Below are positions 1 to 6,762 of a stretch of 6,762 nt of DNA, piece by piece (positions within the stretch are counted from its first letter, which is position 1; every line of letters starts with the position of its first letter). The notes beneath the pieces are model-generated. The model had not been told where the DNA came from. It ran no database searches and saw nothing but the letters and a program-made list of their open reading frames with translations. Made by a program: the position numbers and the translations under genes. Source of the stretch: a virus (Duplodnaviria > Heunggongvirae > Uroviricota > Caudoviricetes); IMG/VR virus record IMGVR_UViG_3300029878_000314, positions 1 through 6,762 of that record; one strand, 5' to 3'.

Positions 1-723
<723 letters not shown>

Positions 724-740
724 ATTTTATAACCCAGAAC

Positions 741-768
741 GGGCGTCAGAAATGACGCCTTTTTTATT
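741..768 (+). terminator. Probable rho-independent terminator between J and lom
   Basis: Stem GGGCGTCA (741-748), loop GAAA, stem TGACGCC (753-759), followed immediately by the T-run TTTTTTATT (760-768). This is a GC-rich hairpin plus U-tract directly after the J stop. Confidence 0.6.
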
Positions 769-789
769 GCAGAAAAGCGAGAGGTAATT

Positions 790-1404
790 ATGCGTAAACT
801 TTATGCCGCCATTTTGTCCGCAGCCATTTTGTCCGCAGCCATTTGTCTGGCCGTATCCGGTGCGCCTGCATGGGCGTCTGAACATCAGTCCACGCTGAGC
901 GCGGGCTATCTTCATGCCCGGACGAACGTTTCCGGCAGCGATGATCTGAACGGGATTAACGTGAAATACCGTTATGAGTTTACGGACACGCTGGGAATGG
1001 TGACGTCATTCAGCTATGCAGGAGACAAGAATCGCCAGCTTACCCGTTACAGCGATACCCGCTGGCATGAAGATTCCGCGCGTAACCGCTGGTTCAGCGT
1101 GATGGCGGGGCCGTCTGTGCGCGTGAATGAATGGTTCAGCGCGTATGCGATGGCGGGTGTGGCTTACAGCCGTGTGTCGACTTTCTCCGGGGATTATCTC
1201 CGCGTAACTGACAACAAGGGGAAAACGCACGATGTGCTGACCGGAAGTGATGACGGTCGCCACAGCAACACGTCTCTGGCGTGGGGGGCTGGCGTGCAGT
1301 TTAACCCGACCGAATCCGTGGCCATTGATATTGCTTATGAAGGTTCCGGCAGTGGTGACTGGCGCACTGACGGTTTCATCGTGGGTGTCGGTTATAAATT
1401 CTGA
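790..1404 (+). CDS. lom: Lom outer-membrane protein (Ail/Lom/PagC/Rck family beta-barrel virulence-associated protein)
   Basis: 204-aa ORF with an N-terminal signal peptide ([12 protein letters not shown]…AWASEHQ) and C-terminal …[25 protein letters not shown] ending in Phe, typical of outer-membrane beta-barrels. It is near-identical to lambda Lom as I recall it. RBS GAGAGG at 775-780 precedes ATG 790. Position after J is the canonical lambda arrangement. Confidence 0.9.
808..837 (+). repeat. Perfect in-frame 15-bp tandem duplication (GCCATTTTGTCCGCA x2) inside the lom signal-peptide coding region
   Basis: Copy 1 at 808-822 and copy 2 at 823-837 are identical, followed by a related partial copy GCCATTTGT. 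They encode [10 protein letters not shown] in the hydrophobic core of the signal peptide. Confidence 0.9.
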
Positions 1405-1431
1405 TTAGCCAGGTAACACAGTGTTATGACA

Positions 1432-1457
1432 GCCCGCCGGTTCAGGCGGGCTTTTTT
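1432..1457 (+). terminator. Probable rho-independent terminator downstream of lom
   Basis: Stem GCCCGCC (1432-1438), loop GGTTCA, stem GGCGGGC (1445-1451), followed by TTTTTT (1452-1457). It lies 28 nt after the lom stop. Confidence 0.65.
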
Positions 1458-1468
1458 GTGGGGTGAAT

Positions 1469-4400
1469 ATGGCAGTAAAGATTTCAGGTGTACTGAAAGA
1501 CGGTGCAGGTAAACCGGTACAGAACTGTACAATCCAGCTGAAAGCAAAACGTAACAGCACCACGGTGGTGGCGAACACGGTGGCCTCAGAAAACCCGGAT
1601 GAAGCCGGGCGTTACAGCATGGACGTTGAGTACGGTCAGTACAGCGTTATTCTGTTGGTGGAAGGCTTCCCGCCATCGCATGCCGGGACCATCACCGTGT
1701 ATGAAGACTCACAACCGGGTACGCTGAATGATTTTCTCGGTGCCATGACGGAGGATGATGTCCGTCCGGAGGCACTGCGCCGCTTTGAACTGATGGTGGA
1801 AGAGGTGGCGCGTAACGCGTCCGCAGTGGCACAGAACACGGCAGCCGCGAAGAAGTCAGCCAGTGATGCCCGCACATCAGCCCGTGAGGCGGCAACCCAT
1901 GCGACTGATGCTGCGGACTCCGCACGCGCAGCCAGCACGTCAGCCGGACAGGCCGCGTCGTCGGCTCAGTCAGCGTCTTCCAGCGCAGGAACGGCATCAG
2001 CAAAGGCTACTGAAGCATCAAAAAGTGCTGCCGCTGCAGAGTCTTCAAAAAGCGCGGCAGCCACCAGTGCCGGTGCAGCGAAAACGTCAGAAACGAATGC
2101 CGCAGCATCACAAAAATCTGCGGCCACTTCTGCATCCACCGCGACCACGAAAGCGTCAGAAGCTGCCACCTCAGCCCGGGATGCGTCGGCTTCAAAAGTG
2201 GCGGCAAAATCATCAGAAACGAGCGCAGCCTCGAGCGCCGGCAGTGCAGCTTCCTCGGCAACGGCGGCAGGAAATTCCGCGAAGGCCGCAAAAACGTCTG
2301 AGACGAATGCGGATAACAGCGCACAGGCGGCAGCAGACTCACAAACTGCATCGGCAAATTCCGCGACAGCAGCCAAAAAATCAGAAACCAACGCGAAAAA
2401 TAGTGAGTCAGCAGCAAAGGTCAGCGAAACCAACGCTAAAGCGTCAGAGAACAAGGCGAAAGAATATCTCGACAAGGTCGGGGGACTCGTCAGCCCGATG
2501 ACGCAATACGATTGGCCTGTTGTTACTGCTAGTGAGTCTCTTTACATCAAGATCGCGAAACTTTCCGATCCTGGAACCAGCAGAAGTCATGTAACGCTAA
2601 TGGTTACTAACGCTGGTAACTACGGCTCCCCTTACGGAAACATTGACTTTATCGAGATCTCGGCGCGCGGTCTGCCTTCTTCGCTTACTGCGGATAATGT
2701 TTCTCGTCATCTGAGTATACGCCGCTTAGGGTCAACCGGGCTGACCGATAACAACCAGATGCGTTACGGCCTGGTTAAAGGTGACGGCTTTATTGAGGTT
2801 TGGGCATTCCAGGGTGCGTTTATTAACGACGCAAAGGTTGCGGTGCTGGCGCAGACAACACTAAGCACAGAATTATACATCCCAGACGGATTTGTTAAGC
2901 AAACCGCCGCGCCTTCTGGATATATTGAAGGCAACGTTGTAAGGATTTACGACCAGGTAAACAAGCCGACTAAAGCAGATTTGGGTCTTTCTAATGCTAT
3001 GCTTACAGGCGCTTTCGGTCTTGGCGGTAGCGGGATAGCAACAAACGGCAAGATGAGCGATGTAGAGATCTTAAAAGCTCTGCGTGACAAAGGTGGTCAT
3101 TTCTGGCGCGGTGATAAGCCGACCGGAAGCACGGCGACCCATTATGACCACGGTTCTGGTATATTCTCGCGGTGCGGCGATACGTGGTCTGCGATCAATA
3201 TCGACTTCAGAACAGGTAAGATCAAGGTTTACGCTGGTAACGATAGTGGACTTAATAGTGGTAAATTTTCCGTCAATGAGCTATACGGAACCCGAAACAA
3301 GCCGTCGAAATCGGATGTTGGACTTGGCAACGTAACTAACGATGCGCAGGTAAAAAAATCCGGCGATACCATGACAGGTGACTTGACAATCAAAAAAGGT
3401 ACACCGTCAGTCTTCCTGCGGGCAGACAGTGGAGTCACCGCTTTGCGGTTTTATACTGGCGATAACACAGAGCGCGGCATAATCTATGCTGGTCCTAACA
3501 CTGATTCGCTTGGCGAAGTTCGCATCAGGGCAAAGACAGCAGGGGGGACATCAGGAGGGGATCTTGTTGTTCGTCACGACGGGAGGGTTGAAGTCCGTGA
3601 TCTCACAGTAGCGTATAAAATTAAAAGCAGAACGATTGAGATTGCAAATACCGACACTGACTCATCGGCAACTACGCTAAGCATCTATGGAGTACAGCAC
3701 ACGCCGTTGGTTTTAACGCGTTCTGGTTCTTCTGAAAATGTGTCCATTGGGTTTAAGTTAGACAACGTGAACCCAAAGTATCTTGGAATTGATACTAATG
3801 GGGATCTGGCTTTTGGTGAGAGTCCTGATCAGAAACAAAACAGCAAATTGATCACGCAAGCGAAACTCGACAAGGGATTAACGATTGGTGGTCAACTGGC
3901 TTTCAAAGGTACGACAGCGTTTTCAGCCGCTGCTACGTTCAGTGCCGGGATAGCAGGAGCTATCGAGCCGGAAAACATTGGCGGCCAGAAGGTTGATCTT
4001 AACAACCTGACCATCAGGTCAGATGCCGGGGCGGTTAAATACTATAGTTGTCCATCCTCTGGAGGTGGTGCAAATATCACCAACAAGCCTGACGGTGTAA
4101 CCGGTAACTTTTTGCTCCGTGTAGAGTCGACTCGCAAAGTTTCTGCTTCGGATTATGCGAACATGCAAACGCTGATCAGCAACGACACAAAACGTATATA
4201 CGTTCGCTTTGTTGTTAATGGAAACTGGACAGCGTGGAGTCAGGTTGTTGTTTCCGGATGGAATCAGGATGTAACCGTCAGGTCGTTAACCTCGACGACT
4301 CCATCAAAATTAGGTGGCGGGCGGATTGATGTGCTTGGAAGTACGTCAGATTATGGCAGCATGAATTGTACCGTTCGTGGTGTTGATAGCACTGGAACCA

Positions 4401-5245
4401 ATTCGGCGTGGTCGGTAGGCACATCAGAAAGCACAGGCAAAATGTTGTTCCTGAAAAACCACAGAAGCAGCGCTCAAGTGCTGTTAAATGGCGATGATGG
4501 AGCGGTTCAACTACTAAGTGGCACTGTTAACGGTGCTACAGCGCAGGCGCTCACTATCAACAGGAATGAGGTTAACTCAACTGCCGATTTAGTAATTAGA
4601 AAACAAACAGGGACTGGCAATCGTTTTGCTTTACTTAATTCAGGTAATTCAGAACTACCAGTTAGTATCAGGGTGTGGGGTTCCAGTACTCGACAAAACG
4701 TTTTTGAGGTTGGAACGTCTGCTGCGTATCTGTTTTATGCGCAAAAAACAACAGACGGGCAAAACCTTACTGTAAACGGAAGTGTTAACTGCACCACACT
4801 GAATCAGTCATCAGACCGCAGACTGAAAGAAAATATCGAGATTATCGATAACGCGACTGACGCAATCCGCAAAATTAATGGATACACGTACACGCTCAAG
4901 GAGAATGGGGCACATTGCGCCGGGGTTATAGCCCAGGAAGTTGAAGAGGCCATCCCGGAGGCCGTTGGTTCATTCATCCATTACGGTGAAGAGTTGCAAG
5001 GCCCGACCGTTGACGGCAACGAGCTACGCGAAGAAACGCGCTATCTTAATGTTGACTACGCCGCCGTGACGGGTTTACTTGTTCAGGTCGCCCGTGAAAC
5101 AGATGATCGCGTTACCTCGCTGGAAGAGGAAAACACAACGCTACGTCAAAATCTGGCAACAGCAGACACCCGGATCAGCACTCTGGAAAATCAGGTAAGC
5201 GAACTGGTTGCACTTGTCCGGCAGTTAACAGGAAGCGAACATTGA
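1469..5245 (+). CDS. stf: Side tail fiber protein (Stf-like), mosaic: lambda-Stf-like N-terminal anchor with Ala/Ser/Thr repeat region, divergent distal domain, and C-terminal peptidase-S74-type intramolecular chaperone domain
   Basis: Supplied ORF 1463..5245 starts at GTG; I prefer the in-frame ATG at 1469, giving MAVKISGVLKDGAGKPVQNCTIQLKAKRNSTTV…, which matches the lambda Stf N-terminus from memory. The product is about 1258 aa. The C-terminal ~145 aa contain …NQSSDRRLKENIEIIDNATDAIRKINGYTYTLKE…, the hallmark of the self-cleaving chaperone domain of endosialidase-type tailspikes and T5 pb1-like fibers. Stop TGA at 5243-5245. Confidence 0.9.
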   Translation: MAVKISGVLKDGAGKPVQNCTIQLKAKRNSTTVVANTVASENPDEAGRYSMDVEYGQYSVILLVEGFPPSHAGTITVYEDSQPGTLNDFLGAMTEDDVRPEALRRFELMVEEVARNASAVAQNTAAAKKSASDARTSAREAATHATDAADSARAASTSAGQAASSAQSASSSAGTASAKATEASKSAAAAESSKSAAATSAGAAKTSETNAAASQKSAATSASTATTKASEAATSARDASASKVAAKSSETSAASSAGSAASSATAAGNSAKAAKTSETNADNSAQAAADSQTASANSATAAKKSETNAKNSESAAKVSETNAKASENKAKEYLDKVGGLVSPMTQYDWPVVTASESLYIKIAKLSDPGTSRSHVTLMVTNAGNYGSPYGNIDFIEISARGLPSSLTADNVSRHLSIRRLGSTGLTDNNQMRYGLVKGDGFIEVWAFQGAFINDAKVAVLAQTTLSTELYIPDGFVKQTAAPSGYIEGNVVRIYDQVNKPTKADLGLSNAMLTGAFGLGGSGIATNGKMSDVEILKALRDKGGHFWRGDKPTGSTATHYDHGSGIFSRCGDTWSAINIDFRTGKIKVYAGNDSGLNSGKFSVNELYGTRNKPSKSDVGLGNVTNDAQVKKSGDTMTGDLTIKKGTPSVFLRADSGVTALRFYTGDNTERGIIYAGPNTDSLGEVRIRAKTAGGTSGGDLVVRHDGRVEVRDLTVAYKIKSRTIEIANTDTDSSATTLSIYGVQHTPLVLTRSGSSENVSIGFKLDNVNPKYLGIDTNGDLAFGESPDQKQNSKLITQAKLDKGLTIGGQLAFKGTTAFSAAATFSAGIAGAIEPENIGGQKVDLNNLTIRSDAGAVKYYSCPSSGGGANITNKPDGVTGNFLLRVESTRKVSASDYANMQTLISNDTKRIYVRFVVNGNWTAWSQVVVSGWNQDVTVRSLTSTTPSKLGGGRIDVLGSTSDYGSMNCTVRGVDSTGTNSAWSVGTSESTGKMLFLKNHRSSAQVLLNGDDGAVQLLSGTVNGATAQALTINRNEVNSTADLVIRKQTGTGNRFALLNSGNSELPVSIRVWGSSTRQNVFEVGTSAAYLFYAQKTTDGQNLTVNGSVNCTTLNQSSDRRLKENIEIIDNATDAIRKINGYTYTLKENGAHCAGVIAQEVEEAIPEAVGSFIHYGEELQGPTVDGNELREETRYLNVDYAAVTGLLVQVARETDDRVTSLEEENTTLRQNLATADTRISTLENQVSELVALVRQLTGSEH
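1810..2460 (+). repeat. Low-complexity Ala/Ser/Thr-rich repeat region within stf (phage tail-fiber repeat-like, recurring AAKTSETNA-type motifs)
   Basis: The translation is dominated by A, S, T, K and E with recurring motifs (AAKTSETNAAAS, AAKTSETNADNS, AAKKSETNAKNS, AAKVSETNAKAS). The nucleotide sequence is GC-rich with reiterated GCN codons. Boundaries are approximate. Confidence 0.6.
4811..5242 (+). other. C-terminal intramolecular chaperone / autoproteolytic domain (peptidase S74-like) of Stf
   Basis: The motif S-D-R-R-L-K begins at the Ser codon 4811-4813, with Ser and Lys five residues apart as in the described Ser/Lys dyad of this family. Conserved-looking downstream block: ENIEII…INGYTYTLKE…GVIAQEVEE…LNVDYAAVTGLL…, ending in a heptad-like segment (LEEENTTLRQNL…LENQVSELVALVRQL). 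The domain boundary is inferred, not measured. Confidence 0.7.
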
Positions 5246-5290
5246 TATCCTTCAAGCTCTGAAGGAGGCTGTTCCCGGTACGTTCAGACT

Positions 5291-5428
5291 GTTGTTGAGC
5301 TGGAAATCGCAACGGAGGAAGAAACCTCATTGCTGGAAGCCTGGAAAAAGTATCGGGTGTTGCTGAACCGTGTTGATACATCAACTGCACCTGATATTGA
5401 GTGGCCTGCAAATCCTGTCAGGGAGTAA
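5291..5428 (+). pseudogene. tfa: Tail fiber assembly protein (tfa) 3' remnant, no start codon, about 45 C-terminal codons retained
   Basis: The translation in this frame is …[45 protein letters not shown], which matches the lambda Tfa C-terminus as I recall it (…[42 protein letters not shown]). There is no in-frame initiation codon between the stf stop and the homologous segment. Stop TAA at 5426-5428. Confidence 0.75.
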
Positions 5429-5477
5429 TCATTGGGATTATGCCGCAGCACGTCTTAAGCAAGAACGTGCTGCGGTT
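5300..5477 (+). repeat. Direct repeat copy A (about 178 bp; tfa 3' coding end plus downstream hairpin)
   Basis: Aligns base-for-base with 6349-6527 at offset +1049 (+1050 after a 1-nt indel in the hairpin). There are roughly 11 mismatches in the 129-nt coding part (about 91% identity). The 3' untranslated part is almost identical except in the hairpin loop. Confidence 0.85.
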
Positions 5478-5491
5478 GGATGCTATTTTTT
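5442..5491 (+). terminator. Stem-loop between the convergent tfa remnant and the methyltransferase gene; possible terminator or RNA-stability element
   Basis: 11-bp stem: GCCGCAGCACG (5442-5452) pairs with CGTGCTGCGGT (5466-5476), with a 13-nt loop. A T6 run at 5486-5491 lies about 9 nt downstream, not immediately adjacent, so this is not a canonical intrinsic terminator. A homologous hairpin exists in copy B at about 6491-6527. Confidence 0.35.
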
Positions 5492-6151
5492 CCCTGAAGC
5501 GGAAAACATTACTACAGTACCTTGAACCTTGGTTTTAACATTCTCGAAATGCTCTGAGAGTATATGTGTTAAGCCTTCTTCGGAATCTTTTGTGTTTGAA
5601 AAGATGCCTTTCTGATTGTAAATGCGCATCAGTTTTTGACCGAAGCTATTGTGCACAACTCCATCGCCAAGAATTGTGGCTCCGTATAGAGTTCCATCGT
5701 CAGTTAAGGCCTGCGCCGCATTGCGTATTACACAGCTTTTTGTAGATATATTTCCAGGCAGGCAGTGAAGAAGGTAAAACATGGAAATGGAATCAAATTG
5801 ACCATGTAACGCCGCGGGATAAGGTTCAAAAACATCATGGCTAATTTTATGTTTAATTTTTGATTCCCCAGCCCTTGTAGATGCCGCGTTCAGGCTAGCT
5901 TCGTTCAAATCCATTAAAGATATCAGACTACTCTCAGGTACGTGAGTAAGGTAAAACCCAGTTCCAACACCAATATCCAGATGGTTGTTACCTACATGTT
6001 CCAGAAAGTGTGGAAGAAGGTGTTCCTTTGTAGGACATCCCCATGCAAGCCGATTTGATACTCCCAAAACCCACCAGTCATAAAGCTTTAGGGTAAGTGG
6101 TGTGTAAATTTTAGCCCCATCATCTGTGTTTTTTTTCATTGATTTCACCAT
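5483..6151 (-). CDS. Class I (Rossmann-fold) SAM-dependent methyltransferase-like protein, about 218-222 aa, probably a moron (accessory cargo gene)
   Basis: Minus-strand ORF. The translation carries a glycine-rich SAM-binding motif I (HLDIGVGTGFY), a post-I acidic strand (ISLMDLNE), a motif II-like block (FDSISMFYLLHCLP) and a motif III-like block (LTDDGTLYG). There is no DPPY/NPPY or PC/ENV motif, so a small-molecule, protein or RNA methyltransferase is more likely than a DNA methyltransferase. It is visibly more AT-rich than the flanking phage genes. The alternative start at the second Met (rc of 6137-6139) has a better SD (GGTGA, 5-nt spacer). From memory this resembles ybcY of E. coli K-12 DLP12, which sits between tfa fragments; that is unverified. 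Confidence 0.75.
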   Translation of the reverse strand: MVKSMKKNTDDGAKIYTPLTLKLYDWWVLGVSNRLAWGCPTKEHLLPHFLEHVGNNHLDIGVGTGFYLTHVPESSLISLMDLNEASLNAASTRAGESKIKHKISHDVFEPYPAALHGQFDSISMFYLLHCLPGNISTKSCVIRNAAQALTDDGTLYGATILGDGVVHNSFGQKLMRIYNQKGIFSNTKDSEEGLTHILSEHFENVKTKVQGTVVMFSASGKK

Positions 6152-6207
6152 GTTATAGTTTTATTTGTGAATTAAATCAATTATGGCGATGAATTACAAG
6201 GGGTTAA
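6152..6207. promoter_or_regulatory. AT-rich divergent intergenic region between the methyltransferase gene (-) and the tfa-like ORF (+); probable promoter region
   Basis: 56-bp AT-rich spacer between divergently oriented start codons. I could not place convincing -35/-10 hexamers by eye, so this is a positional inference only. Confidence 0.3.
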
Positions 6208-6477
6208 ATGCTGCCGCAGCATAGCGATATTGAAATAGCCTGGTATGCTTCGATACAGCAGGAGCCGAATGGCTGGAAGACCGTCACCACACAGTTCTAC
6301 ATCCAGGAATTCAGTGAGTATATTGCGCCACTGCAGGATGCTGTAGATCTGGAAATCGCAACGGAGGAAGAAAGATCGTTGCTGGAGGCATGGAATAAAT
6401 ATCGGGTATTGTTGAATCGTGTTGATACATCAACTGTACCTGATATTGAGTGGCCTGCAAATCCTGTCAGGGAGTAA
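6208..6477 (+). CDS. Short tail-fiber-assembly-like protein (Tfa C-terminal domain fused to a novel about 35-aa N-terminus); TfaX-like fragment, function uncertain
   Basis: 89-aa ORF. The C-terminal half (…[53 protein letters not shown]) matches the lambda Tfa C-terminus as I recall it. The N-terminal portion ([35 protein letters not shown]) is not recognisably Tfa. Possible SD AAGGGG at 6198-6203 with a short 4-nt spacer before ATG 6208. It may be a remnant rather than a functional gene. Confidence 0.55.
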
Positions 6478-6527
6478 TCATTGGGATTATGCCGCAGACA
6501 CGTCGTATGCAGGAACGTGCTGCGGTT
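6349..6527 (+). repeat. Direct repeat copy B (about 179 bp; tfa 3' coding end plus downstream hairpin)
   Basis: Partner of 5300-5477; see copy A. Most coding differences between the copies are synonymous or conservative (T/R, K/N, A/V at the protein level). Confidence 0.85.
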
Positions 6528-6591
6528 AGTTTGTGAGCTTTCGATAGTGGTTGTTATTTTTGCCCTTATTTGTTCCGGAGGCCATGGTTCA

Positions 6592-6762
6592 ATGGTCCGT
6601 CTGCCCCCTGTGGTGATGTCAGCAAAATCAGCCACTGCGCGAACCACAATAGCCCGGGAAGATGCTGAAGATCACCAGGTAAAGCTGTCAGCGCAGAAAC
6701 TGGAAGAACTGCTCGCATCAATGGTTAAGGATGAGGTTGATCGCAATGATGGGATTTATTGA
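6592..6762 (+). CDS. Hypothetical small protein (about 56 aa; alternative start ATG 6616 gives 48 aa)
   Basis: The supplied ORF 6481..6762 has no plausible RBS at its 5' end. The internal ATG at 6592 is preceded by GGAGG (6577-6581) with a 10-nt spacer. The translation (MVRLPPVVMSAKSATARTTIAREDAEDHQVKLSAQKLEELLASMVKDEVDRNDGIY) has no family I recognise. Stop TGA at 6760-6762 is the last three bases of the window. Confidence 0.4.
   Translation: MVRLPPVVMSAKSATARTTIAREDAEDHQVKLSAQKLEELLASMVKDEVDRNDGIY

Follow-up and report, generated by a model that had tools for sequence, protein, structure and literature searches.

An intact YbcY-type methyltransferase gene in the cargo slot behind the tail fibre genes of a lambdoid prophage

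In this study, we report the analysis of a gene for a class I S-adenosylmethionine (SAM)-dependent methyltransferase carried by a virus of the class Caudoviricetes (IMG/VR record IMGVR_UViG_3300029878_000314, positions 1 to 6,762). The whole stretch analysed, referred to here as the window, is 6762 bp long and comes from a lambdoid prophage, of whose late region it forms the right end. Within it, the methyltransferase gene lies between two direct copies of the 3' end of the tail fibre assembly gene tfa, and is the intact form of ybcY, which is a pseudogene in Escherichia coli K-12. The gene is best explained, with a probability of about 60%, as a moron in a lambdoid cargo slot, encoding a small-molecule methyltransferase, spread by way of the tfa repeats and kept for a benefit to the host. 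The feature as such is already known, annotated and very common, and is not new: existing annotation by PGAP names the product 'class I SAM-dependent methyltransferase', and PHROG 2132, to which it belongs, is listed as function unknown. The coordinates of all features are given in Table 1.

The reading frame of the methyltransferase gene is uninterrupted. Its GC content is 0.411 (GC3 0.359), compared with 0.495 in J, 0.558 in lom, 0.507 in stf and 0.470 in tfaX. A first-pass annotation of the same DNA, made from the letters alone, had described an intact, AT-rich and compositionally distinct minus-strand gene for a methyltransferase-like protein, and all of these points are borne out. The profile searches that it proposed matched the protein to PHROG 2132 (E=4e-157, residues 5-222) and, above the gathering thresholds of Pfam, to Methyltransf_12 (37.5 bits against a threshold of 30) as well as Methyltransf_23, _25 and _11. 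SAM motif I, LDIGVGTG at residues 58-65, is invariant in 28 homologues and nearly so in 92; the acidic residue at the end of strand 2, D81 (ribose-binding), is invariant in 92 sequences of 31-56% identity, and D106 of the acidic motif III is invariant in the closer homologue set. An AlphaFold2 model (pLDDT 89.6) has a Rossmann methyltransferase core and an N-terminal helical lid with invariant aromatic residues (Y16, Y24, W26, W27 and W37), and its fold matches solved methyltransferases. On these motifs and the predicted fold, the protein is assigned to the class I SAM-dependent methyltransferase superfamily.

The first-pass annotation had noted that the protein lacks DNA-methyltransferase motifs, and this holds. 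The translation contains neither the (D/N/S)PP(Y/F/W) motif nor the PC/ENV motifs of DNA methyltransferases, the Pfam models N6_Mtase, N6_N4_Mtase, MethyltransfD12 and DNA_methylase gave no match, and a protein of 218-222 aa is too short for a target-recognition domain. The product would be a soluble, single-domain enzyme whose fold and size are those of methyltransferases for small molecules such as metabolites, xenobiotics or lipid head groups rather than for DNA; it would most likely methylate a cytoplasmic small molecule, whether endogenous or environmental in origin.

The two direct repeats match over 164 nt at 90% identity (5285-5448 and 6334-6497), and the match resumes past a 1-nt indel, again at 90% (5449-5477 and 6499-6527), giving a total of about 193 nt, far beyond chance. 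Each copy contains the final ~47 codons of tfa, with stop codons at 5426-5428 (left) and 6475-6477 (right), and about 50 nt of 3' untranslated region with a hairpin. The earlier description of repeats of about 90% identity starting at 5300 and 6349 was right as to the repeats, but their true extent is slightly longer at the 5' side. The statement that the gene sits exactly between them also needs correction: its stop codon lies 5 nt off the end of the left repeat, but on the other side the repeat is reached only after a 56-nt spacer and 126 nt of unique sequence at the start of the tfaX open reading frame (ORF; 6208-6333). Between the copies lie 856 bp of unique DNA (5478-6333), made up of the methyltransferase gene, the spacer and this 5' part of tfaX.

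Both tfa-derived sequences are incomplete. In the left one, for which PGAP labels the equivalent 'tail fiber assembly protein, missing N-terminus', homology to K-12 tfaD starts at 5283. This cut is ascribed to the replacement of the 3' end of stf and the 5' end of tfa by a self-chaperoning, S74-type stf. The stf product matches phage_tail_N at residues 3-136 (E=1e-71) and Peptidase_S74 at residues 1117-1168 (E=2.6e-16); a side tail fibre with its own S74 chaperone fits with no Tfa being needed and would explain why the tfa behind it is a mere remnant. The tfaX ORF joins a unique 42-aa N-terminus to the conserved C-terminal ~47 aa of Tfa, its match to Caudo_TAP is restricted to profile positions 75-130 of 131, its length varies among 80 viral loci and it carries a frameshift in phage 2G7b; tfaX is probably a relic. 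The 80 viral loci were picked by similarity to the intact protein, and intactness statistics from them were not used.

The hairpin of the left repeat folds with -28.6 kcal/mol on the plus strand (z=-4.0) and -25.4 kcal/mol on the minus strand (z=-3.6). It is shared by the late operon (tfa) and the methyltransferase gene, which converge on it, and may act as a terminator in both directions or stabilise 3' ends. The exact motif was present in 76 of the 175 loci fetched, and in the loci compared the hairpin starts 8-11 nt past the methyltransferase stop codon. The Rfam entry IS009 (RF02111, type 'Gene') matches the plus strand at 6231-6434 and 5185-5385 with 112.5 and 95.1 bits (gathering score 117); what this 'RNA family' describes is in effect the 3' repeat of tfaX/tfa. 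A weak partial match to CssrB, a Shigella small RNA, covers the hairpin (5410-5474).

The same three-part module occurs in the DLP12 prophage of K-12 as tfaD-ybcY'(b0562)-tfaX, where the orientation, the promoter spacer and the hairpin are all as in the window; window positions 5283-6454 are 96.7% identical to K-12 at the nucleotide level. The first-pass annotation had pointed to just such a degenerate ybcY/tfaX arrangement. In K-12, ybcY lacks 2 bp at an A8 tract and the ATG, and is dead because the start codon shared by all homologues is lost with these 2 bp, whereas the frame in the window is intact. The K-12 module also differs in that tfaD is full length (187 aa), with a repeat of ~216-227 bp, whereas the left tfa of the window is cut, and in that K-12 tfaX diverges at its 3' end. 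By its sequence and its synteny with tfa and tfaX, the window gene can be identified as the intact form of K-12 YbcY. The A8 tract was considered as a phase-variation switch and rejected, as A8 was found in all 74 scorable viral loci, a sample chosen by similarity to the query protein.

The start of the gene is likely to be the ATG at 6139-6137, which is codon M5 of the annotated ORF, giving a protein of 218 rather than 222 aa. All homologues, and the alignment to the PHROG 2132 profile, start at M5; a GGTGA lies 5 nt upstream of its ATG; and the annotated M1 ATG is directly adjoined by the -10 hexamer of a promoter-like site (TTGATT-17-TATAAC, 6180-6152, minus strand). A second promoter-like site in the spacer is TTAACC-16-CATAAT (6207-6180, minus strand). 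In a consensus scan, sigma-70-like sites were no commoner than in shuffled sequence. For K-12, genomic SELEX (systematic evolution of ligands by exponential enrichment) in vitro placed sites for RpoD holoenzyme and for H-NS in the ybcY/tfaX spacer, and the promoter predicted there for ybcY is the same TTGATT-17-TATAAC as in the window (PMC3946193). These sites agree with a xenogeneic gene whose constitutive promoter is controlled by H-NS, and lend indirect support to expression from the prophage. Lying in a cargo hot spot just downstream of the late operon, the gene would have its own sigma-70-type promoter, read toward tfa, end at the common hairpin and be expressed in the lysogen.

Morons are extra cargo genes that bring transcription signals of their own. 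Between conserved genes, the methyltransferase gene is present in some phages and absent from others, and its GC content is foreign, as is expected of morons. Like the lambdoid morons downstream of stf/tfa (lom and bor of lambda, type III secretion effectors, ompT), it is missing from sister phages, has a foreign composition, promoter-like signals of its own and an end hairpin, and lies at the boundary of the late operon and the b region, where cargo alternates; it differs from them in that YbcY is a cytoplasmic enzyme and not an envelope protein or secreted effector. The comparison of synteny with other lambdoid phages that had been proposed revealed empty sites, with a single tfa 3' end and hairpin and no methyltransferase gene, in PhiR49_2 (where dinI follows), 2B8, HK630 and Salmonella SPF_0923, in agreement with the view of the first-pass annotation that cargo had been inserted or exchanged at the tfa locus.

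Among the loci fetched, the limits of homology to the window lie inside the repeats or at the hairpin, at 5283, 5296, 5331 and 5443 on the left and at 6432, 6455 and 6549 on the right. The flanking tfa sequences are restricted to copies in E. coli, Shigella and E. albertii. Flanking repeats of ~190-225 bp, made of the tfa 3' end and terminator, could provide the homology by which the cassette spreads between lambdoid phages, and the same repeats could loop it out again; we infer that homologous recombination in this sequence moves the cassette among tail-fibre modules and can delete it. Mosaicism is also evident in the window itself: the best match of the whole window among 5426 complete genomes was 97.8%, whereas 5200-6762 alone is 99.9% identical to several of them, and the region is therefore mosaic.

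Other cargo has been placed between tfa and the methyltransferase gene, namely a katN/yciE/yciF/yciG-like cassette in O157:H7 and an ipaH gene (leucine-rich repeat, LRR, and NEL domains) disrupted by an insertion sequence (IS) in Shigella-type loci, where homology to the window starts exactly at the hairpin (5443). In the Shigella-type loci L013, L015 and L016 (6985-9966), the IS-split ipaH, encoding LRR and NEL E3 ligase domains, is found past the hairpin at the end of the methyltransferase gene, no more than about 300 bp away. The stress cassette of O157:H7 strain FRIK2455 (locus L093, 3290-5503) is of the manganese-catalase/yciE/yciF/yciG-like type and duplicates the chromosomal yciEFG genes, which flank the attachment site of the window-type prophage itself.

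In phage 2G7b and O157:H7, the gene order is methyltransferase - tfa' - alpha/beta hydrolase - ompT, with the hydrolase gene within 1-3 kb of the methyltransferase gene (L002, 7394-8788, and L093, 9665-11149, respectively). In Enterobacter chromosomes (L005, 7584-8414), a gene for a different, smaller alpha/beta hydrolase is found within the same range. Pairs of a methyltransferase and a methylesterase exist, such as CysG/CysE and BioC/BioH. The proximity may be a coincidence; running counter to such a pairing, the slot holds appY in K-12, which has no alpha/beta hydrolase there, and in the complete-genome locus closest to the window (L001) the prophage ends at ompW' with no hydrolase.

The gene is very widespread. 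The segment 5483-6207 was detected in 3836 of 5426 complete E. coli genomes (~70%), in 1-4 copies that are almost all chromosomal, and all matches had at least 95% identity. In an evenly spaced sample of the ranked matches, 34 of 39 full-length ones had the undeleted 725-bp span and 5 had the 723-bp span of the K-12 type. The gene is also present in the isolated lambdoid phages 2G7b, ev243, PhiR26_1/29/30/49_1, Turner and Kati. At least 166 IMG/VR contigs carry it as well, usually no further than about 1 kb from where the prophage is predicted to end. Pairwise ratios of nonsynonymous to synonymous substitution rates (dN/dS, Nei-Gojobori) were 0.14-0.29 among E. coli alleles, with few substitutions, and about 0.10 against Citrobacter and Enterobacter homologues; the overall figure of about 0.1-0.17 indicates purifying selection. 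In genomes of the uropathogenic E. coli (UPEC) type, the prophage at the DLP12 site, argU, has shrunk to int'-tfa'-intact methyltransferase-ompT, and the intact gene in this decayed prophage argues that the enzyme has outlived its phage. Examples of such stumps, in which the methyltransferase gene and ompT survive the decay together, are UPEC 26-1 and FDAARGOS_1372 (L094 and L095, 4964-7854). From its frame and the selection on it, the methyltransferase looks functional, and in E. coli it would be a lysogenic-conversion or domesticated gene kept for the host.

The family to which the protein belongs is large, with 1741 clusters at 50% identity at E<1e-3 and 419 at E<1e-30, and all catalytic motifs are kept across the latter. 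Homologues of 50-68% identity are single chromosomal genes in the Pseudomonas syringae group, Yersinia (including Y. pestis), Proteus, Erwinia, Pantoea, Enterobacter, Salmonella arizonae, Pasteurellaceae, Xanthomonadales and Francisella. Their GC content equals that of the host in Pseudomonas and Proteus, and falls below that of the flanks in E. coli, Citrobacter, Klebsiella and Enterobacter. When ORFs within 6 kb on either side were clustered for 80 genome loci from many genera, no conserved neighbours were found beyond synteny within genera; in Pseudomonas, the neighbours encode DUF6388, an enoyl-CoA hydratase and CorA. Longer homologues have N-terminal extensions free of known domains, one of them with an RCC1 repeat region, and distant cluster representatives are named merely 'class I SAM-dependent methyltransferase' or 'UbiE'. 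In Yersinia similis and Y. pestis (L031 and L032, 5216-5896), a short-chain dehydrogenase/reductase (SDR) gene lies ~100 bp upstream on the same strand and may form an operon with the methyltransferase gene; among the genera compared, this arrangement was not seen outside Yersinia. The distribution indicates that the phage gene was captured from an old gammaproteobacterial family of enzymes encoded by stand-alone chromosomal genes, and such a capture favours a metabolic or detoxifying role over one in dedicated phage warfare.

No functional study of ybcY or its methyltransferase product was found in the literature, and searches of NCBIfam gave only sub-threshold matches, to CpaM, RquA and PmtA, and no RNA-methyltransferase model. 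When a profile of 92 family members was compared with the sequences of the Protein Data Bank (PDB), CysG/BelI were the best matches (E=9e-7), over the Rossmann core only. CysG and BelI are Ca2+-dependent carboxyl O-methyltransferases of beta-lactone biosynthesis, with a metal site formed by His122, His123 and Asp191 and an Arg22 carboxylate clamp (PMC11408123). YbcY is of similar length, its invariant H129-C130 aligns with the metal-binding His122-His123 (PDB 9FCD and 9FCE), and its invariant D189 is about as far from the C-terminus as Asp191 is in those enzymes. It differs in its low identity (15-18%), in having Cys and not His at the second ligand position, and in the lack of a biosynthetic gene cluster around it. 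A metal site like that of CysG/BelI is thus put forward as a lead only. It is a rather unlikely extension of this lead that the YbcY family consists of metal-dependent (His-Cys-Asp) methyltransferases whose product alters the physiology or envelope chemistry of E. coli; methylation of a carboxylate metabolite, detoxification of a thiol or heterocyclic toxin, or N-methylation of phosphatidylethanolamine (PE) might serve as examples. With the stand-alone detoxifying or housekeeping small-molecule methyltransferases Tam, TehB, TmtA, XrdM and Rv0560c/Htm, YbcY shares the fold class and gene organisation only, with no family-level sequence membership.

Several observations weigh against a moron that encodes a small-molecule enzyme and is kept for the host. 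The structural matches are non-specific (15-21% identity), and sequence matches in the PDB are weak, the best having E of about 1e-6 over the Rossmann core only. The hairpin has no U-tract on the methyltransferase strand, and its role as a terminator there is therefore doubtful. The H-NS site may keep the gene silent under laboratory conditions, and the high prevalence could in part come from hitch-hiking with ompT or with successful prophages and not from selection on the methyltransferase. Furthermore, the predicted pI is 6.9 for the window protein and 8.7 as the median of the family, and the latter would be compatible with an RNA or protein substrate.

This last value is one of two arguments for a macromolecule methyltransferase acting on rRNA, tRNA or protein and tuning host translation or a host protein in the lysogen, the other being that conserved stand-alone chromosomal genes without operon partners typify RNA-modification enzymes. 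We consider it unlikely, given a single 218-aa Rossmann domain with an aromatic lid as in small-molecule enzymes, no RNA-binding or target-recognition domain, the near-neutral pI of the window protein itself and the NCBIfam result above. A weapon of the phage against other phages or against the host, used in defence, counter-defence or superinfection exclusion, for example by methylating a signalling nucleotide or a receptor precursor, is improbable. The slot after the tail fibres is known for lysogenic-conversion and exclusion genes and holds lom, ipaH, ompT and stress cassettes, and the gene is AT-rich with an H-NS site. Yet it is a single gene without partners; the only match to the defence models of PADLOC 2.0 was mad2 (E=0.009, 12.9 bits); the orthologues in Pseudomonas and Proteus are stable, GC-ameliorated and syntenic, whereas defence genes are typically patchy and in islands; and the E. 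coli copies are nearly invariant and not diversifying.

The top Foldseek match was the PmtA of Rubellimicrobium with dimethyl-PE and S-adenosylhomocysteine (8ys9; E=3.4e-12, 212-220 of 222 columns, TM 0.61-0.65), which raises the prospect of a phospholipid head-group N-methyltransferase of the Rhodobacter PmtA type, yielding monomethyl-PE in the lysogen. The similar size (about 210 aa), an N-terminal helix and a weak NCBIfam match to Legionella PmtA agree with it. It is nevertheless quite improbable, as the NCBIfam PmtA model (NF045882) gave 15.7 bits against a cut-off of 390 and the sequence profile fits CysG, NodS and XrdM better, matching 8ys9 only at E=1e-4 over the Rossmann core. Methylated forms of PE are not counted among the normal lipids of E. 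coli (PMC8590670), yet ~70% of strains carry the gene. Finally, a neutral passenger without function, with the tfa duplication as debris of repeated exchange of tail-fibre modules, is highly improbable: there is clear debris at the locus, in the form of tfaX, the remnant of the left tfa and the DUF4376 fragment, and loss of the gene in K-12 has no known phenotype, but dN/dS is low, the frame is intact in most of the sampled full-length matches and also where the surrounding prophage has been deleted, and the catalytic motifs are conserved across the 419 closer clusters.

Table 1. Features of the 6762-bp window, with positions counted from its first nucleotide
Feature	Position	Strand	Basis
J, C-terminus	7-723	+	ORF, Pfam, PHROG searches
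lom	790-1404	+	ORF, Pfam, PHROG searches
stf, side tail fibre of 1260 aa with C-terminal S74 intramolecular chaperone	1463-5245	+	ORF, Pfam
Left direct repeat: 5'-truncated tfa 3' remnant without start codon, and 3' untranslated region with hairpin	5285-5477	+	
Perfect 11-bp inverted repeat, CCGCAGCACGT-N11-ACGTGCTGCGG	5443-5475	.	Folding
Class I SAM-dependent methyltransferase, intact YbcY, 222-aa ORF, PHROG 2132, WP_000240999.1	5483-6151	-	
Divergent AT-rich 56-nt spacer with putative sigma-70-like promoters for the methyltransferase gene	6152-6207	.	
tfaX-like ORF, 89 aa	6208-6477	+	PHROG 2341, E=6e-61
Right direct repeat: tfaX 3' end and hairpin with 1-nt bulge at 6492-6525	6334-6527	+	
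DUF4376/tail-fibre-like pseudogene fragment, prophage end	6481-6762	+	PHROG 7703 and 1141

The fragment at the right end of the window has an equivalent that PGAP labels 'DUF4376 domain-containing protein, internal stop, incomplete'. Directly after it, in the complete genomes nearest to the window, the prophage ends and abuts ompW'/yciE/trp. The stf gene is uninterrupted in the window, and its homologue in the nearest genomes (L001, 4267-8046) is annotated by PGAP as an N-terminal pseudogene followed by a 'pyocin knob domain-containing S74 family peptidase'. Inside stf (1844-2400, plus strand), a 29-nt core occurs six times at spacings given as multiples of 42 nt (84, 126 and 147 nt); the copies encode a low-complexity shaft rich in Ala, Ser and Lys, where the local GC content reaches 0.67.

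As a sequence feature the gene is ordinary, since few prophage cargo genes are commoner in E. coli. In the majority of natural E. coli it is carried by a prophage or the stump of one, often beside ompT, and purifying selection, its presence in ~70% of genomes and its persistence beside ompT after loss of the prophage make it a functional gap that can be tested cheaply. The locus also illustrates clearly how conserved ends of genes, short as they are, can serve as handles for the recombination that shuffles lambdoid cargo; here the handle would be the 3' end of tfa with its terminator. If the family does prove to be metal-dependent and to alter the physiology of its host, K-12, with its dead copy, would miss an activity of ~70% of the species.

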